A stretch of DNA of 62,990 nt, filler included, from Hausera hauseri (taxonomy: Eukaryota), in the NCBI GenBank assembly GCA_046269625.1. It is 12 parts of 12 records of this genome, joined end to end, with 100 filler letters (N's around TTAATTAATTAA, not from the genome) between each part and the next. Parts side by side here need not be neighbours in the genome. Positions count along the whole stretch, not along the records: positions 1 to 10,243 come from JBJURY010214410.1; 11 more parts are not named here. One strand, written 5' to 3'. This document shows, piece by piece, positions 1 through 57,530 of the stretch. The notes below the pieces were generated by a model. That model worked only from the letters and a program-made list of their open reading frames with translations. It made no database searches and had not been told where the DNA came from. The first letter of the stretch is position 1. The number at the start of each line of letters is the position of its first letter. A program made the position numbers and the translations under genes.

Positions 1-538
1 TCCAAATCGCGAAACATTTATTAATTTAGCAATAGATCGCTGTGAATAACCTGCTTTGTGCAGAATAACTATTTAAGATCTTTTTTCCAAAGATATTTGC
101 GCAAGTCTTGCCATTTTGAGGGCTAATAACGTGCGTTTAAACTCTAACTAATATCGAAAATGAAGCGACTGTATGACAAGTGTTGAGGCCAGATTTTACC
201 ATTGTTTTCATGAAAATTGGATTGCAAACGACAATTAAAAACGTTTGTGAATGTTTGAGTGCAATAATCTTTGATTTTGAATTGACTGGTTTGTAAAAAA
301 CATCAAAAATTTAATGAAATATGGTTCACTGGCAATGTATTGATTTTCATTTTTCTTCAAAATTTTATATCTGGAGGATTTTTTCCATTAAAAGTGATCA
401 AATACTAATAAATATTTGGCAAAATAGTTATATCTTGTTATTTGTTGCAAACAGTCTCAACAAAAAGGGTGTATGATGTTAAAAATAAATATAAATCAGT
501 TTTTTCAAGGTGGCCTCAAACTTTTGACTGGGGGTGTA
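1..538 (-). mobile_element. Tc1/mariner transposon 5' end (TIR plus transposase N-terminus)
   Basis: The minus strand begins TA-CACCCCCAGTCAAAAGTTTGAGGCCA, a Tc1-type TIR with TA target. Minus 114..1 translates MARLAQISLEKRS*IVILHKAGYSQRSIAKLINVSRFG, a Tc1 paired-like HTH with one stop. Confidence 0.88.
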
Positions 539-3300
539 CATAGCCAAGAGTGGAAATTGATGATATACTCTGGATGGAAAATGAAGAAGTCCAAATGGAA
601 CTCAATAGAATAGCAATAGACCAATATATCGTCTTAGATAACAATAAATTTAAATCAATTACCAATATTATCCTATTAGAATTCGGAAAAACCTACGAGA
701 AAATGTCAGCAGAAGATAAATTCTTATTGTTAAAATCGTGTGATGCAATATGAAATAATGAGATAGCAAAAGGAAATACTTTGGATAGTTCATATACAGA
801 AATATAACGGCAATTATTAAAAGATTCAAATTTTATAACAATAATGATGTCGACCGATCAATTAAAGTACATGAAATAACGCATTTGCTACGAATGCATA
901 GTAAACCACTGGATCAAAAACTGGACGTGGAATGTAAAATTACTAAATTGAAACAACAACACCCTCAGCAGAGCCTAAATGAAATTATACATACCTTTCG
1001 TCAAAAACATATAAAAAATCGGAAAACAGAAAGCATTGAAATAGAACCAACTAGAGAAATAACAACAAATTCAGATGCTGAGTTGACTCATAAGCAAACC
1101 TGAATGCGTTTATTCTTATGGGAAATTAATAGAACCCCGGATAAACGACAATCTCCAGAATACCATTACCTAAATACAAATATTTATAACCCTGAAAAAC
1201 AATATTTCACACAAGGTGAAGCATATGCTCTCAAAACTATAGCCTTAGAGGGCCAGAAATATATGAAAACTAATCCTCTTGAATTACATGCAGGAGCTTT
1301 TACATCCTTCACCACGTGGAACACATTTGTCTATCAACTACTCAATATAACTTTACATAGACCCAAGCAATCGGAAATCTCGACTGAGGATATAGAAACT
1401 TTTGACGACCTAGTAGAAGACTGTGACATCGACCACGTAATCAACGAACTATGGACACGAAAAATGCAGAATATTGGGGATGACCCTGAGGAGTATAAGA
1501 AGCATATATGGATAGTTTTATTATTATGGGAAACTGGATTGGAAGATGAACCCCTCACAATGAAACTGGTTGAAGCTATCACTAGCGTAATGGAGAAAAC
1601 AGAGTATTACAAAACATTAGTAAAATCAAAAATACAAACATGAGAACTACGGCACGAAGTAGAAATATTACATAATGGATACCTGAAAGACAAATTAACA
1701 TTAGGAATTGTACATCTCGACAGAGAATGGATAAGAGCAAAAAATAGATATGTACATAAAACACGAATAAATATAGATAGTTATAGATAGATAGTTGGAA
1801 AAGAAAATTTATGAAAGAGGACAATCCCCTGAGGCTATCTATAGATTACGAATACGTAAATATTATGAAAAGAAAATCATTATACTAGCTTTTAGGCATG
1901 GTTATGATAAAAAAGAATGTAGAAACAAAATTTGGACAACTCGATTATTACACCAAGTAAAGATATATATTATCCAACTAGTAAGCAATATGTACAGATG
2001 CACGCATGTCTAAGAGTTTTTAACAGCACTAAATTAGAATTCCTAGGTTATTCGAGATGTACCAGATAGAATGGAATCATTCAAACGATAATTAGTGATT
2101 TCAATAAAGGTTACAATCAACCCTTACAACCAGGATCATCAAATGATGTTAAGTCTAACTCAAAGAATATATAACCCAGAATATGAGTTATATCATGATA
2201 ATGCTAGCCAACCAGAAAAAGTCCAAAACATTATAAGAGAATGGAAAAGACTGTTTATCCACTGTATAGAGGAAGAAAATCCTCAAATTATAAAAGAAAA
2301 GCAAGCCGTACTGAATTACGTATTTAACATGGAAAAATATTGATTGTATAATCCCATAATATGCTTCAATTTCCAATATTATGATATGATGAGAAGGTTT
2401 GCTGATAAATATTTGGATATTCTAACCCGAAAAGAGTGATTACAGAAAAAGATCCCGATATCCAAACTAGAAAGTGTTGTATGAACGAACTACAAGAGTC
2501 AGCTACCATCAGCAAGAGTCACAAATAGAAATGTTTCTATTACAAGACTTTTACATAAGTGCTTGAACAATATCCGAACCGAACCCAGAGATTGAAAGAT
2601 GGATATACCAAGTCGTATGGGAACTGGGCCTAACCCATTACGACATACTAAAAAGGACAATTAATTGGATCAAGGGTCAATATCTGGATTACTTTTATTA
2701 CCTTAATGAATACCAACAACAGAGTTTACTACAAAAAATAGTAGATCACTTCCATATCAATAATTTTGTCCTAGCACCTGACTTCCATACAAAAGAAGTT
2801 AGACAATACATGATACAATTTCTTTTTCAGAGTTTTAATAGAAACATTAATCAGCCCAAAGGAATAAAAGTAACTGATAAAGAAACAATTAGCTTGACAC
2901 AAGCAAATACCATAAAAATTTGCCATAGATCAGTACAACTACACAACGCAAGAATCGACATACTTGCTCAGAAATGCGGAGTAAAGCTCAGTAGAGTAAT
3001 TTATACCAGATGGACCAGTAGAATCACAGCTTATTTAGAGTTAACCTGTGTTGACTTGCTACAGATGGAAAAAGGTTATCTAACAGATTATTTAATACAC
3101 TTTCCAGCAGAAAAAATTCCAGTAACTACAATGTCTTATCTGCAATATCTTACAAAAATGCATAAAGAAATCACTGATATAAACCAACACTTAAAGAACA
3201 AGAAGAATTAATTTATAGGTCCCGTCAGAGACAAAAAATCTTGGCTGATAATAAATAACAATATTTATAAGCTAAGCCAACTCACCTCAAATTCCACATT

Positions 3301-3460
3301 AAAAGGAGAATCTGTTACGAACGAAAACCTTATCGGAACAATCAAATCGAATTCCATAATAAAAGGAGAGTCCATTACGAATGAAAATTCTACTGAACCA
3401 CATGATTCAAATTATACACCAAAAGAGAAGTCCATTACAAATGCAAACTCTACCGAAATG
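3301..3460 (+). repeat. Three diverged 60-bp in-frame repeats (KGESVTNEN / KGESITNEN / KEKSITNAN)
   Basis: aaaaggagaatctgttacgaacgaaaac at 3301, aaaaggagagtccattacgaatgaaaat at 3361, aaaagagaagtccattacaaatgcaaac at 3421. Confidence 0.8.
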
Positions 3461-5184
3461 GATAACCAGCAGAATACAGAAAGTGTTTCAATAAATTATC
3501 AAGGCACGAAGCCGAAACTTAGTCAAGCAGTATTATTTTCATGTATCTTAGCACTATGTATGACGAACATATTGGCACAACCGAAAGCAAAATTCCCAGA
3601 AACCGCAAGACAATCAGCAGTCGACTATATTAAACAGCCACCTCCACAAACAAATTACTTAAAGAATCAAATAGATTCAATATGGTCAAGAAATGCCTTA
3701 TCAATAAAAACTAATGAGTAAAATCATGAGAAAGTTCTGCTAATAATTATCAATATTTTTACAACAATAATGGGCACTACCTTATGTAAGAATAAATTCC
3801 GATCTATAATACTAATTTATATACCAGGATTATTGGCACAAATAACCCCAACAATTCGATTGAAGTTAAATTTAATCACCACTATTTCTAGCCAGCAAAG
3901 ATTACACACCATGTTTCGAGATTATGCGAAATTACGGGAAATACTATATTCAAATTAAAGCATAATCGACGATTCACGTTCAAAGTTTTCTCTATCCAAT
4001 ACAATCCTGAGAGAAAATGTTTAGTGATAACCTACGTAAACAAACCAAAGGGACAGGAAAAGGAAGCATCAACTTTGTTTGAATTATATAGAACTATATG
4101 CGTTACGTACTCAGAACTAAGAGAAAACATGTGTTGTCGCGTTTCCCAAGGACACACCTATTCCTTAATATTCCAAATATCAGAACTCATAAGTGGGTGA
4201 AGTTATAACATTACCATACGACGAACTATCTTCGTCACAATACCCGCGAGAATAACAACAATTAAACCAATAGAAACAAGATTCGAAATGGAGAACTCAG
4301 TTAAGAAATTCGATATTATAACCATACATCTTGTCAGTGGCAAGTTAACTATGAATATAGACTATAATCATCCTATATTTAACATTGATTACGAACTACC
4401 TGATAACTCCAGTGTAATTATCACTATCCCTCATGTGGAATTATTGTCTTTTACCATTTTTTCTCTAACCAACTGTATATACACTGTGGAAGCAATCCAA
4501 CCAAAACTAATATACACTCATGATGAGGACTAAGACCAACCGACTCGTATACTCAAACCGCTTTTACCAGTAAGTGAGTACATTTTCACACTAGAAGGAT
4601 TATCTTTATGATATTTAGAACCTCTATTATCCTTTGTATTATATAATTACGTCACCACTCAACCTAATCCGACAGCTATTAACCAAAACATTGTTGATAT
4701 TGCTATTCTAGATTATAAAGACTAAATTTTATTACTGCAACAAATGTACCCCAGGCATAAAGTCATCGACTAGAGAACACCTTTTACAAGCATAAGGGAT
4801 GATCTTGCCCTGAATAAAATCGACAACGAAGACTTCTTACCCCCTATGCAAGATATATTGAAGCATAAATTCATTATAACAACAGAACTAGATTTATTCT
4901 TATGCTCATTGATGCTACCTATTAGTAATACCAATGGCTGCTTTGATCTTAGCCACCACCCTATCGCTGCAAACTTCTCAACAGACCCAGTACTCATAAT
5001 TCGCCTTACTGAACAATTATTATACACCATCATAATGCCTACGTATATATCACCGTTAGTACAAGCCCACATACTCAGACAATTATATAACTATCTGTCG
5101 AACTCATTGTATATTGAAGACACTGATAATTTTTTAGATCTTAATATTATTGAATTAAATCTCGATTAATTATACTTATTTTCA

Positions 5185-5340
5185 GATTTCCCAGAATGTA
5201 TGGAATTCCGAGTAATACTCTGTGTAGTGTATCGACTTACACCCTGCCTACACATGCTATGTCTATACTGTATAGATCGAGTCCGATCCCAAGCAAATCA
5301 AATGCCATATTGCCCAATTTGTAAATATGAAATTAAATAT
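5185..5340 (+). pseudogene. RING-HC finger 1
   Basis: DFPECMEF...PCLHMLCLYCIDR...CPICK. C3HC4 spacing, with the first Cys replaced by Phe (TTC for TGC). Confidence 0.8.
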
Positions 5341-6081
5341 TACATCCAGCATAATGAACACCTATCTGATGCTGACCAACTCCTACTTGATATTACAACA
5401 TTTGAAATTACCGAACCTACTGACCACATGACATATTACTATACTTGGGATGTGTCAACCCATTTTTCTATCCCATATTTTTAACTTCATACATGTTGTC
5501 TATGCCATAAACACATTAAAACAACCTACCAATTTAGTTGCTGTAACGCCGAATATTGCTCTCATAGTTACCAAATGGAATCTCACCATCGACATCTGAT
5601 TTGTAGCATACGTTATCTTTATCTTCAATTTATATATTCTTACTTCCACCACCCTGTAAGAGCCCTCCTCACTATTACTAACACGCCGATTCCCCAATTA
5701 TTGCCAACCAGATACATCCGATTAGAGCAACAGTCATCGGCTAGAGTTGAATTTCCAATCCATCGTTTTAGGCCACCTACAATAGTTAGACCACCGCCAA
5801 GTACATACCGTGGACCTTTACCCCACATAAACGTCACATCCTTTCTACGTCAACCATCCTCCATACCACATCCACGTTATTGTCCTGAACAAATTGTTAG
5901 ACCTTTATCTTTACTACCAGTACTTATACCGACTATATCTCATAGTTCTCCATTAGCATCACCATTACAACTAAATTGATTCCCAGTCTTAAATCGATGC
6001 CCAATCGGCCTTATTTTTGATCTACATCCACCAGATATTTGTGCATCACTACAAATCCTTTTCTATGACCAACTCCCAACT

Positions 6082-6260
6082 TATGAAAGTACCATATGCC
6101 TTACTGAACGTATAACTGTTGTCCAATTTCAATGCAACCATAATCTATGCGCAACGTGCTTCAAAAATCTTCGTTCCCAATTCCTTCAATCCATCGATCC
6201 AAATGATACACTTCGTATGACCTTCCAGAATGGCATTTCATGTCCATACTGCCGTCAACC
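6082..6260 (+). pseudogene. RING-HC finger 2
   Basis: YESTICLTERITVVQFQCNHNLCATCFKNL...ISCPYCRQP. First Cys replaced by Ser (AGT for TGT). Same frame as RING 1. Confidence 0.8.
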
Positions 6261-6421
6261 ATCAGTTTATTACCACTTCTCATACACCTACAACAATCAT
6301 GTCCAACGATTATTCCATTGGATCAATCCTGTAAACGATGCGACATTAATAATCAGACCCAGAAACCTCAGCTTTATTGACGTCAGTACCCAGAGTGATC
6401 CGGAGGACCGAATCCTTTTTC

Positions 6422-6768
6422 AAAGGGGGGGAGAAATGTTAGAATTTATTGGCAGCAACAAAAACCCAATTATGAACAACCAAAATCCGAAACATCAATT
6501 CTACCAAAACATCAATCCAAGTGCAATTTTGACTTTTATTTCGATCATTCGATTGGACTTTGATTTTATTTAATCATTTCTTACAGTTCAGACATACAAA
6601 CTATGACAATGTGAATATTGTGTTATAATTAATAAACTCGTTGTATATAAATGTCTGTCTTCTTGTTATATTGTTGAACCCTGATGGGTATCTTCGCCAC
6701 ACCGTTTTATGTACAAGTATTGTTAACCAAAGCAGCTAATTAATATTGATACTGAATGGGTTAAAACA
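6422..6768 (+). repeat. Polypurine tract (6422-6436) and 3' LTR starting TGTT at 6437 (right end ~6768 uncertain)
   Basis: AAAGGGGGGGAGAAA is immediately followed by TGTTAGAA. AATAAA at 6631. Candidate ...AAAACA end at 6768. Confidence 0.65.
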
Positions 6769-7004
6769 ACGACAAATTGCATATACAAAATTAGGAACCT
6801 TTGATTTATTAGTTGTAGGTCATAAATCATGGAATATTATTGATTAACAGTCAAGCCATGAATCATGGAAAAATATGAAATACATAAATTATTTTTTGGA
6901 ATAATAACCGCAATCAGAACAAAAGTGGAAATTTTGGAATTAACAAGTGGAGATAAATCATTGTACTTGTAGAATTGATTTAACAAATAGTAATAAATTA
7001 GTTT

Positions 7005-7072
7005 TATTAATTTGACAAGTTGTATTAATTCGACAAGTTGTATTAATTCGACAAGTTGTATTAATTCGACAA
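7005..7072. repeat. 18-bp minisatellite, ~4 copies
   Basis: Unit tattaattcgacaagttg repeated in tandem. Confidence 0.9.
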
Positions 7073-8821
7073 TTTGCGTTACATTTTGGAATCAGTTAGA
7101 CAATTTAATAAATCATTATTCTGCATTTTAAAATCAGACTGACAATATAATAAAATAAATCATTATGTCACATCTAGTATAAAAGCTAGCTACAATTGCA
7201 AAGAAGAACAAGAAATAATCCTTTTTAACAATTTCCAGAACACAAAAGAGCAGATTTTGCGGATACAAATCTTAGAAGAGAAAATTGGGTGAGTGCTTCT
7301 TACAGTGATCCTGAGTTAATTATTTTATATTAAGAAACGCAATCATGTTTAACCTATAATGAAATTTATTACAAAGAATTTTGTCGACGATCGGCATACT
7401 CTGTTAGTGGAAGTATAGATAGTTCGCATCCGAAATTTCTATTTGATAGAAGAAATTATTTCACCCTACATTGCAGACAGTTCTTTTCATCAAATCATTC
7501 CAGTTGCATATTCGAAGAATGGAATTGAACCGAAATAATAAGTTTGGAGTAGAAAATGGTAAATAGTTATTGTAAATATAATGATGAATAAGATTGAATT
7601 AATAAATGATGCCGCCAATCAATTTGTATATTTTGTTCTATGAATAAATATTTTTATTCTGTAATTGATAGACGAATGGATTGTCCATTAGATAACTATG
7701 GTTTTTGCGTTGTATTTGAATTCAGGTTTAGAGTTTAGGTATCAATATTACAATAGATGTGTTTGTTAGAACGGAAATGATACAATAGGAAAAGTTTAGT
7801 AAAATGAACCTTTGGGTTAATAATATTAGAGATAAACTTAACACGAATAGTGCATACTAGTATTCCATGCATTAATTTAACCAATCATTAACTGTGAGTG
7901 AAAAGAAACGTTAAACGACATTATGCAAGATGAACTATTATTTTAAACATGAATATAGAGGTTATCAGTTGTTGGGATACTGCAGTATGATCTTATTACG
8001 AATAGTGAAACTGGGACTGTGATAGATATGAGAAACAATTGAAGATGTAAACCTGTCAAGAAATTTTCTTACAATACAACAAAGGTTGCTAATAAAGATA
8101 ACTAATTGAGAAAGAGTAAAAGGAGTGAATATTAACATATAAGTATAAAAGGACTATAATATGCAACGGTTTATCATGATTTTGAAGAAGCAAATCCAAA
8201 TCTTTATTATTAAAATGATTTTACAAATATCATTATTGATTCTTAAGATGATGATGGGAACTAAAATGAGACAAACAAACCCAGCAATAGACAATATATG
8301 ATATTCATTTAATAAAGAGCGAACAAATATAACCATACAAGAAGAATAAATAGGTATTTGGCTCTGAAATATCTTATTAATTTAGAAAGGTCCGAATTAA
8401 TAAGTGTATTCCTCACAGTTAAAAAAGTTTTGAGCTTGAGAATCGTAAGAAATGATTAATTGCGACGCACAGAAATATTTGAATAGATCATGCTATTATA
8501 TTTCACAAATTGAAAAATCGGAATTTTAAATACTAAGCTCAATGGATAACTCATTTGAAATGTTTTGTAAATTTATGGTTAGAATGAAATGAAGGTAATC
8601 AGATACATATTCATGTGATCCGCTGGATATTTGAAAGAAACATATCGCAGCAATATTCCCCAAAGAAGGCAGACATCAGAATATCATTATGAATAAATCA
8701 CTTATAATTCTAATTATAATCCTATTAATTTTTCCCCATTTTACCATTCTTAATATGTTGACATGAAGATAAAGGTTAGGTGCATGTGTATGTAAATTGA
8801 CCCCTATGCCACCATATAAAC

Positions 8822-8838
8822 TGGTGCCCTGAGTGAGG
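8822..8838 (+). promoter_or_regulatory. Candidate primer-binding site (elongator tRNA-Met-like)
   Basis: TGGTGCCCTGAGTGAGG resembles the complement of a metazoan tRNA-Met(e) 3' end (TGGTGCCCCGTGTGAGG) and the PBS at 28795. Confidence 0.5.
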
Positions 8839-8889
8839 AACACCTCGCTCTTCCACTAATAAAAGAAATATTATAGTTTTAAATTAATA

Positions 8890-9087
8890 TTGATATTGAT
8901 GAAATATTTAGATGACAAGCCTATTAAATGCAGGTTATGTTTTGAACCCCTAGGAAGAAAATATGCACTATTTCGCTACACACACATCATGTGTGTTAAC
9001 TGTGCAGACAGCTGGTTAAGAAAGAACCAGAGTTGCCCTTTTGTCGGAGAATGGCGACAGCATATCAGTGTTGGGGAACCACTGTAA
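8890..9087 (+). pseudogene. RING-HC finger 3 (decayed)
   Basis: CRLCFEPLGRKYALFRYTHIMCVNCADSWLRKNQSCPF, then CRR after a 1-nt frameshift. Third Cys replaced by Tyr (TAC). Confidence 0.8.
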
Positions 9088-9524
9088 TGGGGCTCCCTGA
9101 TGATGATGAAGAAGAAAACAATGACGTTGTATAGTTGCTTGGACCAAATGGATTCAGATATCACCTACCCTGATTTATGAAATATATTGTGTATAGTTTT
9201 GTGGCTCTAGTAATACAGTTTAATCGCTTGTAATTACTTCATATGAATGAGAGTACTGACACGTTCAAGGAATGATCATGTTCTGAAGATTTGCTGACGA
9301 TTAAATGCCCTGGTAGATTTGGGAATGGATGTATTGGAAGACGTTAGCAATAAATAATCATTACTAAAAGAAAGAAGTTAGAAGGAAATAAAAGAAATAT
9401 TAATAGAAAAATATGAACATTTTGTAAATTTGTTATATTATTTTAATATATGATGTCTTGTTACTAAGGTACGGTTTCTCAGTGTTTAGATTTTTCTGAC
9501 CCTTTCATCAGCCAGCAGGCTCAC

Positions 9525-10243
9525 CTTGAGCTTGGCGTCCTGGCTGAGGATGTCTGCGATGAACTGCAGCTCCGCTGACGGGTCGTTCAGCCACTCCACC
9601 ACCATGCGCCTGTGATGCCTGGACAGAAAGTTAGGAAATACGCAAATACTCGGTCATAATGACTCCTGAGTTCTGTAAATTGATCCATTTTACAATAATT
9701 CTAGTTTTTCTTTTCATCCCTCATTAGTCTTTTTATCTCACTGCAACAACAAAAAAAATAATCAAAATGAAATCAAAATATCTGTTTTGTTATGAGCCTC
9801 AATTCTAAACATCAAAATGAAGTAAAAATAAAAGATGTAAAGATAAAGCCCACGCTTTAATTCTCTCCTTTAATATTTATATCTTTAATCGCTGCGATGG
9901 AGATTGTGATTAGGAACGCACTGATAGGAACATTTGAGCCGATATTGATATCCGATTTTAATACTGCTGTTATGGCCGATAACATATCGTACAAAGTTTC
10001 TCTACCGTTTTGACACCTCTGCTAAAATTGTTCCTAAAGTCTCTCTGACCTTAGGAACAAGGAAACGAATGGCAACAAGATGAAAATCGATACTGATACA
10101 TAAAAAAAAAAGACAAATGTTGGATACCGATACCGATGTTAGTGATATTGTGTACGACTTATTGTGATCAGTGGAAACGCGGCTCACCAGACTTGATAGT
10201 TCTTGGGCTGCTCCTCGATGATGTTGGTGATGTATCTCATCTC
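9525..10243 (-). CDS. FNTA: Two exons of farnesyltransferase/GGTase-I alpha subunit, teleost-like (exons 10243-10188 and 9618-9525)
   Basis: Spliced translation [19 protein letters not shown]|[29 protein letters not shown] matches the FNTA PFTA repeats. GTGAG donors, CAG acceptor, GC3-rich codons. Confidence 0.92.
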
Positions 10244-10723: not shown

Positions 10724-10925
10724 ACGGATGAAAAGCAGAAACGAGCAGAGGAAACACGAAGTAATGCAGTAAGGAACTAGATTAAAACTGTGGAAGTCGG
10801 GAAGAGTGGATTCAATAAGCAGATCCTAGCGTTGCTGTCTAAGATGCTATGAAAAACTTTAGGAGAAGGTAACCGTATTAACGGACGAATAATGTTAGGT
10901 TATATTATTTCAAATTCGAAGACAA

Positions 10926-11450
10926 ATGGACAAGTGGATCCAGATTTTATTGTGGTCAGTGATAGGAATCACTGCAACTCTGAGCAAACAAAAAGAGATC
11001 AACATAGTAGTGAGAGACAACACAGTGTCCATAAAAGCAAAAGAAGTATCAGACATTAAAGCACATTGGAAATTAACCATCGCCACAGACATGCAACCAT
11101 ATGAGGAAGAATTAATGAATGCAACCAAACAAACGATGAACTTACACGATATCGTCGACAGAAATACGAAATGGTACAAGACGAAGGGCAATAGTCATAA
11201 TTTTAATGATCATCGTAATAGGAATAACAGTAATGAAGAATAGACACACCATCGTAAACAAAATAAACTTTGGAAAACAAAAGGAACAAAAACACCAAAG
11301 ACAAAAGAACACGTAGAATTACAAGACATAACTACAGACACCATACACTAACCAAACCGGCTAATCATGAAATTAGAACAACCACCGAAACACAAAAACA
11401 ACAATCAACCCAATTAGAGATACCTTCCTCTACCCAAGCCTGAGGTTTAC
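10926..11450 (+). pseudogene. env: Internally deleted envelope gene, probably baculovirus-F/errantivirus (class I) type
   Basis: Signal peptide MDKWIQILLWSVIGITATLS and motif AHWKLTIATDMQPYEEEL. In a shifted frame, NGTRRR-AIVIILMIIVIGITV (basic site fused to a TM helix) followed by a basic tail. Confidence 0.5.
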
Positions 11451-19426: not shown

Positions 19427-19904
19427 NNNNNNNNNNNNNNNNNNNNNNNNNNNNNNNNNNNNNNNNNNNNTTAATTAATTAANNNNNNNNNNNNNNNNNN
19501 NNNNNNNNNNNNNNNNNNNNNNNNNNATAGTAAACTATACCGGACTCCAAGGCGACATACTGTCCGAAAAAGAAAGATTAATATATAATATAGCACGGAC
19601 CATGAAAACTTCGAGATTTAAATTATCTAAAAGCACCCTCCCGGACAAAACAGTGATTGACAGAATTATGGCAGATAATACAACGGAAGAATTAAGGAAA
19701 GTTTTGATATATTTGGCGGTAAGAACCAACCCCCACCGAGAAAACGAATTTGAAAAGACAATTGGATTGGCTAGAAAAGCTGCGAGAAGAATAACTAAAG
19801 AAGTAAAGTGGACTAAATTTTTTGAAAAAGAGGAAAATGTAAAAGGGACTAATAAGTTAGAAGATATGATACGAAATATCTCTTTAAATAGAGGCAATGA
19901 ATCC

Positions 19905-22024
19905 AATTGGTTAGTCAATCTACTAACAATAATGATGCTAGTGAAACAGCTAGGAGCAGTCACTATCTACGACTGTGATAAATTCAAGATGGGTCAAAGA
20001 TATTGTCTAATGGATCTGGAAGCGTGTGAAGATACCAGACCACACAAGTTAGAAACAAGAGAGAGAAATTACTTCTTGTACCAGCAACAAGAACTGATAT
20101 CGCTAGACGGAATGGAATGCATGTTGCGACGATCTCGCAGTATTTTTCACTGTGAATTAATGCACGGACATTCTTCAATAATCAAACCAACGATCCCTCC
20201 AATTCCCATGAACTTGGTACGGCAGCACTGCAAACAGGCTAAAGAGACTGGAAGAGTACATTGGGACAATATGGAATTAGAAATGCAAGCGGACAAAATA
20301 ATTAGGGCGTACAAAGTTGTAGCCGGAAGGTTAGACATGCACAATGGACACTGTAGTGGAGCTGAATACGATACTGGTAAGGGATTAGAACCAAACGCAG
20401 TAGTTGTGGATTTCTACGAATCGGAAATGCGATCACAAAAGGTAATGTTTCATAGCGTCACCAAGTTATATACGGAACACCAAAAATGTCATTTACAAGA
20501 TGGAACCTGTGCTTTTATGAGCTCGGTTACAATATGGGAACCGCCCTCAGGAAGAAGTTGTAAGTTTATTAAAATTAAAAAACTACAGTTTAATGAGACC
20601 ACCGGCAAGCGATACGTGGATAAATTGGATACCAACTCAAGGACGCACGAGGCTGTATTAGAACATCCTACGCCCATCATATTAATCTCACGTTGTGATG
20701 TGGTAATGTTTGCTACTAACTACGAAGAGTTCTTCGTAGCCGAAACTGAGATAAATGCGAGGACTTATAAGTTGGAAACACAAGATATCAGGATTGAGGA
20801 CTATCTAAAGAATAGAAACGATTATTTTTATTACAAAGGACAAACTGGAATAACTGAGTTATACCACAAAATGATAACGAACGACTGTAAATTGGATACT
20901 GAGATCATTAGGACAAAACTGGCTCTTATATATGCCAATCCAGAATCGGCTTCTCCAATAATTCCTATGATAGAGGGAATCTTTGGTCGAGTTACAGGCG
21001 AAGTATGACTAACTTACTAATGTGAAAAGAGAGATGTACCCATAAATGTAGAAGAGAAACGCTGCATCCAAAACACTCCTAGACTAGCTACACCATTGAT
21101 GAGAGTATTATTGGATAATGCAACCCAACTTACTATTCTTAAAGATTGTAAAGCGAGCTTAGCAGAGCCCATGTTTAGGCCTAGTGAGACAGAATGGGTC
21201 AGTTTACCGAATGGAGGTATTACTGCCACCTCATACAAATTAACATAAACAAATCTGGCGAAAGGAATTACGGACGACAAATTTCAGGACACTTCATCGA
21301 AAGGCATATATAGGCCTAAAGAGATTAAAGCCTTTAGACAATTCCTCGCTTTTTTACGACAACGAACGCATGAATTAAACCGAGCCATGGCCTCTGTGGT
21401 AGACGATACCTAATATCAGGCTAAGTGGGAATCTCTACTTGGCGCTAATAACTACCAAAGAGTAACTTCGGAAATATTGTATAAGATTTGAGGAAGATTT
21501 TTAATTTTCGGAAAGCTGCATCTGGATTTTTAGCCATCTACTTCTTAGTCCAGTTAGTTAAGGCCGTCTTACAAGCTATCATTAACGGATACGAAATATT
21601 CACATTAACCAGATTCTCCTGTAAGGTTTTAACTGCAAGTATTATACCCTTTGGGAAAATGCTCAAGGCCTACGAGGAAAATCAATGGAAAAATGATGTA
21701 AAACGCCATGTTGGATACTATAATCGCAAGCGACGAGGAAAACCTTCGATATTGTATAAACGTAAAAATAAGACAACAGTAACACGCAGGGATGATTCAG
21801 ATGATGACGAGCCTAAGGGAAGAGATGTGAATTGCAGAATGAAGATGCGCAAGATGTATTCAGTAATTAACGCGCCATTACCTATAATGCGGCCAACAGC
21901 ACCAATATATGAAGACTGTGACCGCAAATCAATCGTATCATGTCGGTCGGAAATCTATCAAAAACCGTCTAATTACGAAGATCCTTATGAAAAAACAAAA
22001 CAATATGGAGACTACGGAAAATAA
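19905..22024 (+). pseudogene. env: Chuvirus-like / gB-type class III fusion glycoprotein with internal signal peptide, TM anchor and cytoplasmic tail
   Basis: Ordered motifs YDC, CMLRRSRSIFHC..HGHSS, AGRLD..GHCSG, C..DGTC..TIW, C..D..I..KL..NP, GEV..Y.C, GIY, W(TGA)GRFLIFG and a TM (FLAIYFLVQLVKAVL) match chuviral G. Several stops after 21008 and a frameshift near 21512. Confidence 0.85.
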
Positions 22025-22029
22025 ATGTT

Positions 22030-24758
22030 ATGTACCAAGGACCAACAGAAAACGACCACGGAATATTGTACTCAAAAAGGATACCGCGCCACATAGAATC
22101 GGAATCAACAATCTGGGGGAACCCGAAACTGTGTTCGATCTCAAGTTCACTACCCCAGGAGCCGCTCATTGACAGTCGCGTTATTGAAATAATAAATAAC
22201 AATTTGTATCCGAATGGAGAATTAAGACAATTAAGGCAAGATATCATTTTATCGCCAGAAATAAAGATAAACGGACACAGAGTCTCTACTATAAAACGGT
22301 CCAAGATAGTGTCAAATTGCTACGGAACAGTAGCAGAAGGGAGACCTTTCGCTAACATACACATCGAAGATAGGGAAGTGTATGCGTTAATCGACACAGG
22401 ATCAGAAAAATCATTTATAAAATATGAATCGATACCAACCACATTTGGGCAAGTATCGAAGCCGAAATTTAAATGGACTCGTACCGTTTATCTAATGGGC
22501 CGAGCACTTCAACGTGAATTCGAGGTAATGGACCAGTTGTCAGACAATGTAGTACTAGGTTGTGATATATCAAAACAGATACCAGGTATGGCAATCGATG
22601 TCCATAACGGAAAATTAATTGAGCTGGAACCAATTAATAGGACAAAAATAATAAAGGAAAGGAAATCGGGCGAAGTATGGATTCCAGTAGATGAGGACAT
22701 CCCTCCCAGAACTGAAATGATAATTTTTGCGCAGATTCTTTAGGACGAAGATCTACCAGTACATTTTGAACCTCAAGAGAATATCGATCCAAATCTCATG
22801 ATTAGCAATATTCTATGTAGAATAGTGATGGGACAAATGCCTATCAGATTAGTGAACAATGCACCAACTACCGTACGATTGCATGCTAACACTACTCTAG
22901 GTCACACTTGTAGAGTATGGGCAATAACAATAGAAGAAAAACCATACAAATGCACAGAATTTCCACCTCACGTCGAAACCAAATTCTCTCCGGAAGAGTA
23001 TTGCAAGTTCTACGAATTATTATGTAAATACAGTTCGATAATCGCACAAAATGAAGAAGATATAGGTAGAGCAAAATCTTTAAGGTTAACAATTCCATTA
23101 AGGAAGAAACCCGGCTCAAATGACAAGATTGATCTAGAAGAACAGAAAATGCCCAAGTGGTACCAGCCTCCTCATTCATTGAGACCGGAGATAACTAAGG
23201 AAGTAGAGCGGATGTTGAAGGCCGATATAATTTGACCAATCTACCGATCGTGATACTCTTCTATACTTATGGTTAAAAAGAAAGAAACTAAAAAACATAG
23301 GTTTTGTATAGATTATCGGGCATTAAACACGTTGATGAAGAAAGACTCCTTTCCCCTACCGTCAGTAAAGGAAGCTTTAGACAGACTATAAGGAGCAAAA
23401 TGGTTTACCACTCTCGATTTACAATTGGGATACTGGCAGGTGGAAATCGAAGAAAAAGATCGATATAAGGCAGCGTTCAAAACACACGATGGCGTATACG
23501 AATTTAATGTTATGCCTTTCGTCATCACCACAGGACTAGCTATTTTTACTAGAATGATGAATAAGATGCTCATGGGACTTGATCATTCTTTTGCGTACTT
23601 AGACGACGTGATGATAGCATCAAATACGGAGGAGGAACACTTAAAGGATATTGAAGATACCCTCATGCGACTAGAACAAGCGAGTTTGAAACTAAATCCA
23701 AAGAAATGTAAATGGGCACAAAATGCAGTATCGTATCTCGGACACATAGTTGGAGAAGGAGAATCAAAACCGGACAAATCTCTACTAAATAAGATATCCG
23801 ATTACATGGAGCCGCAGAATCAAAAGAAATTAAGACATTGGTTAGGCCTATGTGGATATTATGCCACTTACGTACCAAACAATTCAAAAATTAACGCGTC
23901 ACTATATTGCCTACTCAAAAAAGGAATTAAGTGGAGATGGACGGAAGTGGAGCAAATAGTCTTCGATGAAATGAAGAAAGTTTTGACAAGTGAACCAGTT
24001 TTAAGATACCTGGATTTTAACCTGCCATTCATGATTAAAACAGATGCAAGTAAAGAAGGCATAAGATACGAATTAGCTCAAAAACGAGAAGGCGAAGAAC
24101 TGAAACATCCAATAGCTTATGGTGGACGCTCGTTAAAGAAAGCAGAAAAGAATTATTTAGTTACCGAATTAGAAACGCTAGCCGTTAAGGAAGCACTACG
24201 ACACTTTAACGTCTATGTCTACAGACAAAAGATCATAATACTAACCGACCACAAAGCTGTTACGACATTAAAAGGACGAGCTAATAACCCAACATGTAGA
24301 TTAAACAGTTAGATCGAGGAAATCTCACGATATAACATTGAATTTCAATACAAACCGCGGTAATAAACACGTCGACACCGACGCACTGTCAAGGTTAAAG
24401 ACAAAAACGAGTGCAATAACCACACTAAAGAAACCATAACTCGAACAGCTGATCGAACGACAAAGAACTCTGATATCGGATAAGACAATTAGAATTACAG
24501 CAGAGAAAGCTAAAGACACAGTTATTCAGCAAATTATCGAGTTCGTCAAAACAACAAAACGCCAAAAGGACGGCAACTGAAAAGCATCTACAGAAACACG
24601 GACATAAATATCGCGCATCAAACCAAGATAACACCCTGTATTACGAATGGAAAGGAAAAAGATTAATAGCCATTCCAAAATATTACGCACCGAAGTACTC
24701 ATGGCTGAACATGACTTGTATTTAGCTGGACACATGTCTTGGAAGAAGACATTGGAAA
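22030..24758 (+). pseudogene. pol: Pol: aspartic protease, RT, RNase H, integrase N-terminus
   Basis: ALIDTGS at 22393; [19 protein letters not shown] at 23596; IKTDAS, ELETLA, TDH, DALSR; EHDLYLAGHMSWKKT. Mostly one frame with stops. Confidence 0.95.
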
Positions 24759-35934: not shown

Positions 35935-36760
35935 TAGATTAACCCATTTTGTCGAACTGATGGCATTAGTGGACCAAAAAGCGTAGACTGGCAGAAGCCG
36001 TAGTAAGGAAAATCATCTGCAGATACGAACCTCCTGAACAAATTCTGACAGATCGAGGAAGGAACTTTACGAGTGAATTATTCGAAGGGATTACCAAAAT
36101 ATTTGAGATTGAACGATTAACCGCAACTGCTTACCACCTGCAATGTAACGGAATGGTCGAACGGATGAACGCAACCGTTATACGAATCTTATCAATAGTA
36201 GTTGCGAAAGACCAGAAGGATTGGGATGAATTCTTAGAGGGTACACAGTTTGACATAAACACTACATCACATCCCTCAACAGGATTTACTCCATTTTTAT
36301 GATGTATGGTAGAGACGCTGTACTACCCACGGACTTATGAATAATACCATATACAGTAAAAACGGATAATCTAATACTAAACTTTGTTAAATTGTTGCAG
36401 ACGGGATTACGCAAACGATGGGATATAGCCAAAGAATTGTCCAAAAAATATCAAGAGCAATTTAAAAGGCAATATGATAATAACGCTATACCATATGATT
36501 TGGAGAAAGGAAACTGGGTTTATGTGCATTATCTGGTTGCGAAGAAAGACAAATCTTTAAAACTAACCCGAACTGGCAGAGGACCTTATAAAATTATTAG
36601 AACCACACCAACTAAAGTCTATATTAATAAAAATGGCAAAGAGGTCGTATCCATACAAAGAGTGGTCAAAACGGAAATAAGGCCAAATAAACGATATAAT
36701 CTGCGTTCGACTGAGAAAAATCCAAGTCAAACCAAGAAAGAAAAGAAAACGTCATCGATA
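35935..36760 (+). pseudogene. pol: Ty3/gypsy integrase core and GPY/F C-terminus
   Basis: PEQILTDRGRNFTSELF, TAYHLQCNGMVERMN, QKDWD, STGFTPF..YGRD, RGPYKII, RYNLRS. Confidence 0.93.
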
Positions 36761-37910
36761 GTAACTAGACCGATATCATGTGCACAAATAATTCTTGAAC
36801 TATCGCTAATCGCTTCATATATACCAAGTGAAAAAACACAATGAATACTGTGTTTAGTAGAATATAACCACGGAGTTATGCCATATTTCGCAACTGAAAA
36901 AGAACAACATGCAGGAAGACGGCAAGACATACAGAATTTACAGTTGCTCAGAGTCTACGATATGAATTCAATAAAACACTGCGCCTGGTTTAAGACAAGC
37001 GAATCTGTTAAGAACAATGTAAAATTTCAGATTATATTTGTGGATCAAACAAGTTCTAGGATGAAGACATGTGATTTTCCATATGGACCCTATCAGAAAT
37101 GTTGCGATTTAGATTTCGGACGAACATATTAATATAAATTTTAGACGTTCTATTATAATCTGCCTGGAGCCCAAGCCTATATAACTACCGAATTGGAAAT
37201 ACAAATGCCTCAAGGTAACGACACAAGTTAAGCCAAGACAGATGATATAGTCCGAAATACCGATCCATTTAAGAGACTCTTAGATTATAGCATTATTGTG
37301 AACTCCAAAGACTTTGAAAACCAATGTATTCGAATTAAGAACAAAATAGAGTTGCATGGAGATAGACGAATTTCCATCCGATTCACAACGACACATAAAT
37401 CAACCCCTCCTGTGAAATATTGTTATATTGCGCGAGAACAACAAAATCCGGGCTGCAGGATATCTTTGGATTATGAATACCAAATGCAATTTGATTTGTA
37501 CAATACATACCCGAACGAACCGAGTACTTATTTAATAGTATATCGTCCAAAAGTCGGAATATGGAAGATTTCCTTCCCAACAACTACAAGAAAACCGTCT
37601 ACCATTCCAAGTACGACTCGCACCACTAATATTAATACTTCGAGTAAAATGACCGATAGAGAATTGGAAAACATACATGTTAAAATTTTGGCGCGACATA
37701 ATAGAATTGTATTTTATGTTGAAAAAACAGTGGATTATGAAATTAAAATCGAATGTCGTAACTTACATACCAACAAAATTGTAATCTTAAGGAAGAATAG
37801 TCAGAAAATCGAACGTAAATCTCTACGATGACAAAATGAGCATATAATTCAAATGACCGCAATGGTAAGAGACATAAAACTCTTACAGTACAAAGTCTTA
37901 ACAACGAAGT
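36761..37910 (+). pseudogene. In-frame post-integrase extension: signal-like segment, beta-rich Cys-containing (FN3-like) domains, Thr/Pro linker
   Basis: ORFs at 36392, 36878 and 37298 share one frame. AQIILELSLIASYIPS; KTCDFPYGPYQKCCDLDFGRTY; PTTTRKPSTIPSTTRTT. Confidence 0.6.
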
Positions 37911-38229: not shown

Positions 38230-38370
38230 CTCACAATTATATACACCAATTTTTCCTCAATGTATGAGCAGAAAACGCTTTGAGACCATAAAACAATATT
38301 TACATTTTTCCGACAACAACGAATTTGATCCAGCAAATCACCTTAGCCTGAAACTCAACTAAATATAGCC
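38230..38370 (+). mobile_element. piggyBac transposase fragment
   Basis: TPIFPQCMSRKRFETIKQYLHFSDN (PGBD-type MSR.RF...LHF.DN motif). Confidence 0.85.
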
Positions 38371-38418: not shown

Positions 38419-39875
38419 TCTATATAATAAAGTAATTTGTCTGTCTGTAACACCCCGCAATTTCGACAAAGTAGATCATTCTCGAGAAAAGTGGAAATGT
38501 GCAGATCTACTCTAGAACTTTGTGGAAATTCCTAACATTTCAATATTTTTGGTATAAATTCAATAATCAATTCAGGGTATTTGAAACTCTACCAAAGTTT
38601 ATTTATAAAAGCAATGAAATACCATCTCGAAGGCCCGTTGTAGTACGCGCCAGAAGATTGACAAAGTCAAGAGATAACAGAAAATGCCTCTCAAAGAGAA
38701 TCTCGGCTAACAAACGCACGTTTGAGAAGAAATCGCTCACGAATACGACGTAAAATCGGCCATGAAAGGCAACAAGTTAGGAGGTCGCAAGCAAGCGCCA
38801 CAGCTACAGCTTTCTCCGCTTACTCCTATGACAAAAAGTTTTTTCATCGTGTGGTGCTTTTCATTTTGTTGGTGAGCGAACCGGAACTGACAAATTTTTC
38901 TTTACTTCGTATTGCCAAAAGGGAAAAATTAATTTAAAGTCAGTAACAATTGTACAATATGATACAAATCTTGAAAGGAAAACTGAAGCTTTGCAATTTC
39001 TTAATTCCCTTTTAACCAGTGAGCATTGTCAGAGTGCCAATTTTCTTAATGAAGTTCGCCCTTATAACGGTTCCTTAGCAATTGCGTCGTAAAACCTCAA
39101 TCTTCATGTGTTTAACTCGTCAGGTCCGTACGTCTACTGTGTGCATGGACAAATTTACCATTGCTTATGCCCAACTAATGCAGGAATTGGGCAAACTCCT
39201 CAATTTAACCAATTATACTTCCTCAGTACCGATGAGGCGATGACGCATCGTCAGCAAACATCAATTCAACATGATCTAAATGCCATTTTACTGCTCCAAT
39301 TGGAAAACGCAATTCTTCTTTTTAATCCAATTGCCCAAGCATACCAGACTGTGAAAGATGTCATCGAACAAAAGACTTCAACGGTATTTAATGATAAAAG
39401 ATCGGAGAGATCTCAGATTAATTTTTGATGAAGGGAGTAATTTAGATCTACGTCACTACAATGCACCAACTGCTAATCAAATTGCAGCTGTTATAGTCGG
39501 TGATTCATCAAATTGTTTTCAACTTCAGGATTTCAGATGTTTTGTCTCAAATCCCAATTATCAACGGCAATTGTGACCAAATATGTTATCCAATCGCTGA
39601 CACCCGACGCTTCTACGCATTACAAGGAGAAAATTTTTCAATGATGCAATTCTATTCTTATAAGCTTGCGTATCGTGATAGTCTCAATTCTATTCGATAC
39701 GGAGGAAAATTGTTCCAGCAATATGTCGTTGATGCTTATGTCAAAGTTAAAGGAGAACGTCTCAATTTTCTGCGCAGTAATCAATAAATTCTTCGAGCTG
39801 AAAGTTACCAAGGACTCATGGACTATTTAGCCAATACTACTGATGTTATAAATGCATGCATTGGCAAAACAATTA
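38419..39875 (+). mobile_element. Helitron 5' end and decayed Rep/helicase N-terminal region
   Basis: 5' TCTATATAATAAAG..GTCTGTCTG; GPYVYCVHGQIYH, QLYF, YNAPTANQIAAVIVG, GGKLFQQYVVDAYVKV..ERL, LRAESY. Confidence 0.92.
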
Positions 39876-53354: not shown

Positions 53355-53454
53355 NNNNNNNNNNNNNNNNNNNNNNNNNNNNNNNNNNNNNNNNNNNNTT
53401 AATTAATTAANNNNNNNNNNNNNNNNNNNNNNNNNNNNNNNNNNNNNNNNNNNN

Positions 53455-56400
53455 CAGGTTCAAACAGCACCATTTCCCTGCCTATATGATTATAAAAAAC
53501 TTTTGAAAATATCCACTCAAGAGATTTCAGATGAGATAATTTCCTCACGTATATGATTACAACAAACTTTTGAAAAAATCCCCTGAACCAGTTCCATACC
53601 ACACTGTTTCACCAACTATATGAATATAGCAAACATTTGAAAAAATTCAATCAACCAATTTCAGAAAATACCATTTCCCCACCTATCTGACTATAACAAA
53701 AATTTGCAAAAATGATTGGTACAACACAATTTCCCCGCCCGTTTGACTATAACACAGATTTGTAAAAATCCCTTCACCTAGTTTCAAACAAAACAATTTC
53801 CCCACATAACTTATTAGAACAAACTTCTGAAAATGTCCCCTGAACCACTTTCTATGAACATCAATTCCCCACTTATATAAGTATAACCAACTTTTGAAAA
53901 AATCCCCTCAACCAGTTTCAGACGACAACATTTCACCAACTATCTGAATATAACAAATATTTAAAAAAATCCCTTGACCCAGTTTAAGACAACACCATTA
54001 TCCCACCACTCCGACTATAAAAAACAAGTGAAAAAAATCTCCTCATCCAGCTTCAGACAACATCATTTCACCGCCTATCTGATTAAAGTAAATATTTGAA
54101 AAAAATCCATTGAACCAATTTCAGAAAACACCATTTCCCCACCTATCTGACTATAAAACAAATTTGCAAAAAATGCCCTCAACCAGTTTCAGACAACACA
54201 ATTTCCCTGCCTATCTGATTATAAAAACTTTTGAAAAAATCCACTCAAGAGATTTCAGACGACACAATTTCCTCACGTATCTGACTATAACAAAGTTTTG
54301 AAGATATCCCCTCAACCAGTTACATACCACACCGTTTCACCAACTATCTGATTAGAGCAAACATTTAAAAAAATCCAATCAACCAATTTCAGAGAACACA
54401 ATTTCCCCATATATCCGTCTATAAGAAAAATTTACAAAAAAATCCCCTCAATCGGTTTCAAACAACAGAATTTCCCCACATATCTCAGTATAACAAACAC
54501 TTGAAAAATTCGCCTGACTCAGATTTGTACAATACCATTTCCACACCTGCCTGACTACAACACATATTTGTAAAAATCCCTTCATCCAGTTTCAGAAAAC
54601 ATGAATTCCCCACTTATCTGATTATAACAAACTATAAAAAAGTGCCCTGACCAAGTTTCGGACAACGCAATTATCCCACCACTCTGACTATAAAAAACGT
54701 GAAAAAAATCTCCTCATATAGCTCCAGACAACACCATTTCACCGCCTATCTGATCAGAGCAAATATTTGAAAATTCCACTCGACCAATTTCAAAAAGCAC
54801 CATGTCGCACCTATCTGACTGTAACCCAAATTTAAAAAAATGCCCTCAATTAGTTTCAGACAACAAAAATTTCCCGCCTATTTGAGTATAACAATTCGCC
54901 TGATCTACATTTGACTAACACCATTTCCCCACCTATCTGACCACAACACAGAATCGAAAAAAGTCCACTCAACTAATTTCAGAAAACACCATTTCCCCAC
55001 ATATCTATCTATGACAAAACCTTGAAAAAATACCCTCAACCAGTTTCAGACAAAACAAATTCCCCACATATCTGAGCATTACAACCGTTTGAAAAATTTG
55101 CCTGACTCAGATTGGTACAACAACATTTCCCCGCCTGCATGATTATAAAACAATACAATTTCCACACCTGCCTGACTATAACACACATTTGTAAAAGTCC
55201 CTTTATCCAGTTTCAGAAAACGTGATTTTCCCACTTATCTGATTATAACAAACTATGAAAAAATACCCTGACCCAGTTTCAGAAAACACCATTATCCCAC
55301 GACTCTGTCTATAAAAAACATGTGAAAAAATTTAATCATCCAGCTTCAGACAACACAATTTCACCGCCTATCTGATTAGAGCAAACATGTGAAAAAAGTC
55401 GACTGAACCAATTTCAGAAAACAACATTTCCCACCTATTTGACTATAACAAAAATTTGCAAAAATGCCCTCAACCACTTTCAGACAACACAAATTCCCCA
55501 ACTATATAAGTATAACAAACATGTAAAAAATTGTCCTGACGCAGATTTGTACAACACGATTTCCCCACCTCTCTGATAATAACAAAAATTTTCAAAAATG
55601 CACTCAACCAGTTTCGGACAACATCATTTCCGTACCCATCTGAGGATAACAAAAGTTTGTAAAAATCCCCTCTACCGATTTCAGACAACAGAATTTCCCC
55701 ACCTATCTGAGTATAACAAACATTTGAAAAATTTGCCTGACTCAGACTTGTACAATATCATTCCCACACCTCCCTGATTATAACACACATTTGGAAAAAT
55801 CCCTTTATCCAGTTTTATATAACATGATTTCCCCACATTTCAGATTATAACAAACTATGAAAAAATACCCTGACCCAGTTTCAGACAACACCATTATGCA
55901 ACCACTATGACTATAAAAAATATGTAAAAAAAATCTCCTCATGCAGCTTCAGACAACACCATTTCACCGCCTATCTGATTATAGCAAACATTTGAAAAAA
56001 GTCCACTGAACCAATTTCAGAAAATAGCATTTCCCACCTATCTGACTATAACAGAAATTTGCAAAAGTGACCTCAACCAATTTCAGACAACACAAATTCC
56101 CCAACTATATGAGTATAACAAACATGTAAAAAATTGTCCTGACGCAGATTTGTACAACACAATTTCCCTTCCTGTCTGGCAATAACACAGATTTGTAAAA
56201 ATCCCATCATACAGTTTCAGACAACACGATTTCCGCACTTATCTGATTATAACAAACTATGAAAAGATGCCCTGACCCAGTTTCAGCAATACCATTATCC
56301 CACCACTCTGACTATAAAAACGTTTAAAAAATCTCCTCCTATAGCTTCACACGACACCATTACACCGCCTATTAGACTGCAAAAATATCTGCAAAAATGC

Positions 56401-57530
56401 CCTCAACCAGTTTCAGACAACATAAATTCCCCAGCTATCTGAGTATAACAAATATTTGAGAAATTCGCCTGACCCAGATTTGTACAATACCATTTCCCCA
56501 CCTGTCTGACTATAACATACATTTGTAAAAATACCTTCATCCATTTACAGACGACACAATTTCACCACCTATCTGACTATAACAAACATTTGAAAAGATC
56601 CCTTGACCCAGTTTCAGACAACATCATTTCCCTTTCTATCTGGTTATAAAAACTTTTGAAAAAATCCACTCAAGAGATTTCAAACGACACAATTCCCTCA
56701 CGTATCTGACTGTAACAGACTTTTGAAAAAATCAGCTCAAGCAGTTCCAGGGCACACCGTTTCACCACTTATCTGATTATAGCAAAGATTTGAAAAAAAT
56801 CCAATCAACCAATTTCAGAAAACTGTATTTCACCTCATATCTGACTATAAGAAAAATTTGTAAAAATCCTCTCAACGGGTTTCAGGTAACAGAATTTCCC
56901 ACCTATCTGACTGTAACAAAAATTTGCAAAAATACCATGACCCAGTTTCAGACAACACCATTATGCCACCACTCTGACTATAAAAAATATGTAAAAAAAT
57001 CTCATGCAGCTTCAGACAACACCATTTCACCGCCTATCTGATTAGAGCAAACATTTGAAAAAAGTCCACTGAACCAATTTCAGAAAATAACATTTCTCAC
57101 CTATCTGATTGTAACAAAAATTTGCAAAAATGTCCTCAACCAGTTTCAGATAACACAAATTTCCCACGTATCTGAGTATTACAAACATTTGAAAAATTCT
57201 CCTGACCCAGATTTGTACAACACCATTTCCCCGCCTGTCTGACTATAACACATATTTGTAAAAATCCCTTCATTTAGTTTCAGAAAACATGATTTACCCT
57301 CTTATCTGATTATAAAAAACTTTTGAAAAATTCCCCTCAACCAGTTTCGGGCAACTCCGTTTCACCAACTATCTGATTATAGCAAACATTTAAAAATTCC
57401 TCTCAACCAATTTCAATAAACACCATTTCCCCACCTATTTCAGTATAACAAACATGTGAAAAATTCCACTCAACCAGTTGCAGACAACATCATTTCACCA
57501 CCTATCTGATTATAGCAAAAATTTAAAAAA
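53455..57530. repeat. Satellite array, ~67-68-bp monomer, ~60 diverged copies
   Basis: Consensus approx. tcagacaacaccatttccccacctatctgactataacaaacatttgaaaaaatcccctcaaccagtt. Confidence 0.95.

Follow-up and report, generated by a model that had tools for sequence, protein, structure and literature searches.

LTR retrotransposons are usually viewed as gag-pol(-env) units that are silenced by the host. The locus studied here raises the question of what kind of element carries, immediately before its LTR, several kilobases of other coding sequence that includes RING fingers. It lies in a window of 62,990 nucleotides (the whole stretch of DNA analysed, from Hausera hauseri, assembly GCA_046269625.1), which consists of 12 contigs with N44-TTAATTAATTAA-N44 spacers between them; the arm sits on contig 1 (positions 1-10243). 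Tc1 and gypsy elements and an FNTA-like exon point to an animal host. A first-pass annotation had described it as a single long frame with an FN3-like domain and two RING fingers, and had tentatively joined it to a Gag-X-Env-Pol family. Our results support the identification of this stretch as the decayed 3' arm of an LTR element that exists in many copies and carries non-gag/pol cargo. Going further, we consider it probable, judging from the sequence, that this is the decayed 3' end of a likely Ty3/gypsy retroelement present in many copies, in which a jelly-roll-pseudonuclease gene would be followed by a putative triple-finger ubiquitin-ligase gene. The observations underlying this reading are the repeat status, the purine-tract/TG junction, the domain homologies, the intact relatives, the third-position bias and the shared stop position.

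A repeated element ending in a purine tract and a putative LTR

We compared contig 1 with X1, a run holding 41% of the sampled words, which may be the window's own sample. Among its 15.5 million contigs, 13,322 map to 1-10243 at 80% or more, and most of these (10,908) are less than 95% alike to contig 1; the bands of 99% and above, 95-99%, 90-95% and below 90% identity hold 625, 1789, 4780 and 6128 contigs, respectively. Summed X1 contig depth, which does not equal copy number, ranges from hundreds to thousands across 1-6840 and is 8-50 in 7 of the 10 remaining bins. On a finer scale it peaks above 100,000 at 6380-6429 and drops to 6-14, a single-copy-like level, from about 6755.

At the 3' end of the coding region, a polypurine tract of 15 purines (6422-6436, forward strand, as are all features of the arm below) coincides in part with the final codons of the RING ORF; it was recognised from the letters, X1 depth and the ends of related proteins. 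It is followed by a putative 3' LTR of 332 bp (6437-6768) with TGTT...AACA ends and an AATAAA at 6631, delimited by its letters, the divergence of copies and repeat depth. The earlier description of the arm as ending in a polypurine tract and a TG-starting LTR was borne out, since the junction is common to many copies. Indeed, among the loose-end positions listed (the best 6 of 189), four fall at 6429-6442, with 25, 24, 14 and 20 contigs, and in these the first LTR letters are kept and divergence sets in after them. This pattern is the one expected for a conserved purine-tract junction followed by the variable U3 of LTR subfamilies. That the sequence from 6437 onward is a repeated LTR likewise stands: 6605-6729 is repeated by X1 depth, the ends form a TG...CA inversion, and depth beyond is single-copy-like, one near-identical X1 contig of depth 6 spanning the right end of the LTR into flanking DNA. 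Positions 6455-6529 are without X1 cover, which proves nothing. No second copy of the 332-bp LTR, as a 5' LTR, occurs within the window, no primer-binding site or target-site duplication was seen on contig 1, and there was no loose end at 6768 among the best 6 of 189.

The junction also fixes where the last ORF stops. The C-termini of the related proteins P0002, P0011 and P0013 correspond to window frame 2 residues up to a TAG at 6440-6442, which places the usual end of the ORF across the tract; in the contig 1 copy the RING ORF continues past the junction in another frame. This bears on the suggestion that an endogenous fragment of a large DNA virus or Polinton happens to lie beside an unrelated solo LTR. 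RING ligases and runs of orphan ORFs are common in baculo- and nudiviruses, which is what would recommend such an origin. We nevertheless judge it extremely improbable, because the last codons of independent relatives extend over the purine tract into the beginning of the LTR, no related locus was found in three scans of viral_contigs (IMG/VR) or in metagenome_contigs, and no viral core gene was seen.

Natural relatives and coding capacity

A phmmer search against 1.84 billion representatives returned five matches, four of them family members. The relatives so found were P0002 (425 aa, 63% identity), P0003 (349 aa, 56%), P0004 (240 aa, 51%), P0005 and P0006. P0013 came from a search with a RING profile, which gave 3 out of 3589, all family members. 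These relatives are ENA or Logan proteins, gene-caller products that were compared at the protein level. The contig that encodes P0002 measures 19,467 bp, which would accommodate a full element. P0003 and P0013 each lie on a 3286-bp contig and abut in the same order as in the window, from which we infer that they share one contig.

In window frame 1, positions 3892-6435 hold 8 stops in 848 codons, compared with 43-76 in the other five frames, and in 1000 dinucleotide shuffles the lowest best-of-six-frames stop count was 30. The earlier claim of a single frame of about 2.5 kb thus holds as regards its low stop density but not its unity, as the relative P0003 ends just where the stop at 5167 lies. 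Nor is the frame broken only by point stops: that at 4609 falls inside an insertion absent from P0003, and that at 5167 is likely a genuine ORF end. Five of the eight stops stand opposite a residue in confidently aligned relatives, and the stop at 4198 lies in a zone of unreliable alignment. The copy in contig 1 is unable to make either protein.

Upstream, at 541-3958, low stop density and X1 depth delimit decayed cargo ORFs of the same repeat. Low-stop stretches follow one another with a changing frame (541-900, 789-1814, 1801-2568 and 2567-3958), hydropathy marks hydrophobic stretches near 3518-3580 and 3731-3790, and summed X1 depth is 660-3600 in the bins from 685 to 3762. This repeated, low-stop DNA agrees with the earlier statement that at least 5.9 kb of non-gag/pol coding sequence precedes the LTR, and Pfam searches found no gag or pol domain in those 5.9 kb. 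There was no convincing match to 541-3958 in Pfam, PHROG, homologue or Atlas searches: none of 565 candidates for the upstream ORF product P0009 in the homologue search, no usable Atlas match for 2567-3208, and none of five proteins matched in PHROGs. A separate homologue search, with P0001 at 466-1484 aa, gave none of 4583 candidates.

The element is truncated on its 5' side, with 6.2 kb left on the contig, by the left end of a Tc1/mariner-like DNA transposon (1-538, reverse strand), recognised from its terminal letters and helix-turn-helix (HTH) matches. It comprises a terminal repeat, which we take to resemble that of Tc1, and the start of the transposase HTH (Pfam HTH_38, E 1.3e-5; HTH_SB, Sleeping Beauty-type, E 4.6e-4). 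The Tc1 insertion already proposed upstream is confirmed as a Tc1-like end, the Sleeping Beauty-type HTH matching at about E 5e-4.

Gene 1: a predicted beta domain and a DEDDh-type pseudonuclease

The first part of the frame (3961-4220) is a beta-rich, Cys-containing segment without a Pfam match, modelled at pLDDT below 50 and, by alignment, not common to P0003. It is followed by a predicted jelly-roll or double-stranded beta-helix (4222-4520) that is common to P0003 and P0006. In the N-terminal structure model, whose mean pLDDT of 33 is poor, residues 88-186 match jelly-roll and cupin, GOLD and CBM chains with Z of 6-8 and rmsd mostly 2.3-3.5, so this domain looks jelly-roll/cupin- or GOLD-like with low confidence; Foldseek gave no match for the model at E 0.001. 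The FN3-like domain of the first-pass annotation found no counterpart, either as a Pfam fn3 match or among 50 VIA-align structural rows, which derive from a low-confidence model and barely probe its upstream part; an FN3 fold may still occur at 3961-4220.

Further along, gene 1 has (about 4630-5100) a DEDDh 3'-5' exonuclease fold of REX4/ISG20/SDN1 type, according to phmmer, profile and Atlas comparisons. P0006, itself an RNase_T protein (E 5.7e-9), aligns to aa 190-359 of the frame; it matches P0003 at E 2e-15, and a three-row profile that includes it retrieves SDN1 (E 3.2e-5), ISG20L2 (9.6e-5) and the PolC exonuclease (2.8e-4). The Atlas lead for P0003 is RNase_T as well (0.81), and 10 of 10 family matches agree. 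The D-x-E motif of ExoI is present in P0006 and absent both in the contig 1 copy, which has three stops at 4609-4771 in or just before this domain, and in the stop-free P0003; it therefore seems that what the family encodes is a pseudonuclease and not an enzyme in decay. The ExoIII motif gave no reliable alignment. This exonuclease-fold domain had been overlooked in the earlier annotation.

Gene 2: three fingers in tandem

Both RING fingers that had been proposed for the downstream part are present, at 5197-5322 and 6088-6252, and match Pfam RING families with E values from 1e-4 to 2e-7. RING-A (5197-5322), identified by Pfam and by alignment with relatives, is of C3HC4 type, its first Cys pair being one ligand short (zf-C3HC4, E 1.2e-3; Prok-RING_4, 7e-5). 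RING-C (6088-6252), found by Pfam, is a C3HC4 finger with a long loop and lacks its first ligand (RING_XB3-XBAT31, E 2e-7; zf-C3HC4_3, PF13920, 27.0 bits against a cut-off of 27). A Pfam check of the frame, which had been recommended, thus returns RING families at or below the curated cut-offs, most window scores falling below them and that of RING-C equalling the PF13920 cut-off. Scores rise in the relatives, P0013 matching over RING-C at E 1.9e-8 and P0002 passing the gathering score of PF00097 (21.8 against 21 bits).

A middle finger (5494-5613), damaged in the contig 1 copy, is recognised from the cysteines of the relatives. Its pattern, C-x2-C-x11-C-C-x4-C-x2-C-x11-C-x2-C, has eight of eight Cys in P0002, P0004 and P0013, in a RING-like C4C4 spacing that presumably resembles that of NOT4-type RINGs, and its local similarity score to RING-C was reached by 4 of 1000 shuffles. 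This finger, too, had escaped the earlier annotation. The Pro/Ser-rich linker that follows (5677-5976) has 20 Pro per 100 residues, as expected of the Pro-rich linker described before. No IBR domain was matched in Pfam, hence there is no sign of an RBR ligase.

All three fingers are short of ligands in the contig 1 copy and intact in natural relatives. The C3HC4 ligand set of RING-C is full in P0002 and P0013, and that of RING-A is full in P0002 except for the first Cys, which would precede the called start; across the stop-free relatives, at 51-63% identity, every Cys/His ligand is kept where the predicted sequences cover it. An AlphaFold model of P0002 was poor (pLDDT 28). In the intact relatives, the ligand spacing of RING-A and RING-C is that of C3HC4 RING E3 ligases, a class that includes viral accessory RING ligases. 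Unlike these, the arm has three tandem fingers and a Pro-rich linker, and its middle finger has neither a His nor a Pfam match at E up to 10.

Two likely genes, their possible expression and their maintenance

The last residue of P0003 aligns exactly one column before the stop at 5167, and P0002, P0004 and P0013 all begin downstream of it. The supposed single frame at 3892-6435 therefore likely comprises a pair of genes, the 5167 stop being a true ORF end, a conclusion from alignments in which the conservation of that stop rests on the end of one relative and the Met starts of gene-caller products. Letters and the P0003 alignment place an acceptor-like, pyrimidine-rich TTTTCAG just after the stop (5167-5185); it begins at 5179 and ends at 5185, and contig 1 has two such sequences. 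Past the stop, the codon just before the first Met encodes the first zinc ligand of RING-A, so plain initiation at that Met would give a broken finger, provided that the relatives have the same upstream Cys. Because of this position, the RING gene would most simply be expressed from a spliced subgenomic RNA through the acceptor-like site at 5185, as env genes are. Alternatively, read-through of the 5167 stop would yield a pseudonuclease-RING fusion. A donor-like GTAAGT at 4570, the only one in contig 1, was considered as a partner for 5185 and rejected for a phase mismatch.

Variation among copies suggests that gene 2 has been maintained. Third codon positions account for 18 of the 29 variable sites listed in 6216-6415 (binomial p 0.0014; 40 of 45 rows listed, the sites not being independent), and this bias argues that the family's RING ORF is under purifying selection. 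It also weighs against capture of a host gene, in which a retrocopy of a RING ligase and a REX4-like nuclease would be a passive passenger with no role for the element. Both domains are indeed of cellular type. Yet a passenger origin appears highly unlikely to us, given not only the third-position bias but also that no host-like full-length homologue came up among the 1.84 billion representatives, that relatives sharing about 60% identity have their ORF end at one place, the purine tract/LTR, and that the ExoI acids are lost in a stop-free relative as well.

Comparison with known elements and a candidate owner of the arm

Conceptually, our best reading by analogy places the arm close to the planarian Burro elements and to the DEDDy ORF3 of rotifer elements. 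Burro/GYPSM1 exceed 30 kb, carry AIR1/RING-type, MATH, SUMO-like, BIR and BCL2-like domains and have Env between Gag and Pol (PMC6431247); that their ubiquitin-related domains meddle with host ubiquitination was proposed there and left as an idea. The earlier view that RINGs are not LTR-retrotransposon genes does not, in its strong sense, survive the AIR1/RING-type motif of these elements (PMC6431247). Like them, the element on contig 1 is an LTR element with many kilobases of non-gag/pol coding sequence and ubiquitin-related domains, and contig 4 of the window has Env before Pol. In contrast, the domains of Burro lie mostly inside the Gag-Env-Pol polyprotein, whereas in the present arm the final ORF is that of the RINGs and overlaps the purine tract (PMC6431247). 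Burro-like giant elements have an internal region of about 25 kb with a Gag-Env-Pol polyprotein; contig 1 carries 6.2 kb of element and an LTR of 332 bp. No BIR, MATH, ankyrin or BCL2-like domain was matched by Pfam in the 3' part present on contig 1, from which the 5' part is absent, and neither a DEDDh domain nor a triple RING is named for Burro in section 7 of PMC6431247.

In the bdelloid rotifer elements Juno and Vesta, ORF3 encodes an RNase D-like DEDDy protein with intact catalytic residues (PMC5408684). The DnaQ-like 3'-5' exonuclease is shared, theirs being encoded as an accessory ORF behind pol and ahead of the 3' LTR; here, however, it is a REX4/ISG20-like DEDDh domain without the ExoI acids, joined to a jelly-roll and followed by RINGs. 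The word RING does not occur in the main text of PMC5408684. GAG-ENV-POL errantiviruses with an HSV/gB-type Env have been reported from Platyhelminthes, Bryozoa and Nematoda (PMC13524379), in whose main text RING, exonuclease and accessory have no occurrences. A 3' cassette of several RINGs and a DEDDh pseudonuclease in an LTR element was not found in the literature searched; annotations by Grohme et al. (2018) or in Repbase may include such domains.

Within the window, contig 1 matched none of the other 11 contigs at E 1e-3, either by blastn or by six-frame blastp, so that nothing ties it to the sequences for Gag, Env and Pol on other contigs of the window. A look-alike CC-x4-G-x-TY motif had suggested kinship between the arm and the ORF behind the integrase of contig 7; this was rejected, as the best BLASTP E was 0.55, the hhalign probability was 0.3% and the score was reached by 106 of 1000 shuffles. 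The proposed Gag-X-Env-Pol link and its composite of about 18 kb accordingly find no support here, contig 1 having no similarity to the other 11 contigs or to the contig 7 ORF. Pfam searches of contig 4 detected Monjiviricetes_fusion, then protease, then RT, which makes it likely an element of the GAG-ENV-POL errantivirus kind, and this kind of element is a candidate owner of the contig 1 arm.

The family might instead be non-autonomous and LARD-like, consisting of LTRs and accessory genes only and mobilised in trans by Gag-Env-Pol elements of the same genome. The 5.9 kb without a gag or pol domain and the lack of resemblance to the 3' arm on contig 7, which does carry an integrase, would fit this proposal, which would leave the function of the cargo the same and dispense with a giant autonomous element. 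It seems unlikely to us, since we would expect purifying selection on several kilobases of ORFs to fit an autonomous element better, the contig of P0002 could hold a full element, and there are precedents for giant autonomous gypsy elements with cargo of this sort (PMC6431247).

Possible function of the cassette

If the arm is indeed the end of an LTR element with these two genes, the gene 2 product would be an element-encoded E3 ligase and the pseudonuclease its RNA- or RNP-binding partner. The pseudonuclease would bind RNA or RNP without cutting, and the RINGs would recruit host E2 enzymes. The accessory ligases of DNA viruses mark host proteins, and by analogy the RINGs would mark host silencing or restriction proteins, which we regard as the most likely class of targets. 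A bolder version would have a giant enveloped gypsy-type family, very abundant in the genome, with a 3' counter-silencing module in which an RNA-binding pseudonuclease locates small-RNA or RNA-decay complexes and the triple-RING ligase, its expression turned on by splicing or by read-through of the stop, destroys them; to this version, which would make the module the retrotransposon counterpart of accessory ubiquitin ligases in complex viruses, we assign only a small chance.

If the two-gene reading is true, a multi-RING ligase that is encoded by the element and kept by selection, next to a dead RNA nuclease, would constitute a concrete candidate for transposon counter-defence, an idea already raised for Burro. 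Should E3 activity fail, it would be an odd but minor cargo arrangement. The intact natural copies P0002, P0003 and P0013 make ligase and binding tests feasible.

Results and discussion

The relative P0006, a Logan/ENA protein that matches the contig 1 frame, combines the beta domain of the contig 1 family with a DEDDh nuclease in which the catalytic motifs are kept, and may represent the active type from which this family's pseudonuclease descends.

Contig 4 carries an Env-Pol region (19527-24309, + strand) running from an HSV/gB-type Env (Monjiviricetes_fusion, E 1.8e-26) through protease and RT to RNase H. Env thus lies ahead of Pol, as it does in Burro, the giant gypsy-like LTR retrotransposons of planarians, and in the flatworm GAG-ENV-POL elements. 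The start of contig 4 resembles the end of contig 10 (69%), and contig 10 also matches the Gag-like contig 6 (75%). On contig 7, the integrase is followed in frame by a beta-rich ORF of no assigned family and ~330 codons (35970-37830 with the integrase, + strand), which gave no significant match when compared with the cargo of contig 1. Contig 7 also holds a piggyBac-like fragment (DDE_Tnp_1_7, ~38243-38332) and, at 39093-39784, ORF pieces with a Helitron-like motif, spotted by eye.

A search against Pfam returned no match for either the 643-codon coiled-coil ORF of contig 8 (42479-44410, + strand), which has three 14-residue repeats close to its start, or the contig 2 stretch at 10899-11243 (+ strand). 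The latter has a signal-peptide-like start and a beta-rich part, and looks, by eye, like an F-type Env. Contig 11 bears a diverged satellite of 67-bp unit with higher-order structure (53430-57600).

The window (1-62990) comprises 12 unrelated contigs of 4-10 kb each, joined by N44-TTAATTAATTAA-N44 spacers; long-range repeats that seemed to sit at these spacers were rejected as artefacts.

Right of the LTR on contig 1 lies a short tandem repeat (7010-7075; 18-bp unit, ~3.5 copies). Further along contig 1, in an AT-rich flank, a GC-rich, exon-like stretch of the farnesyltransferase alpha subunit (9534-9623, - strand) matches mammalian FNTA (E 2e-10) and is vertebrate-like to a striking degree, considering the host genome.
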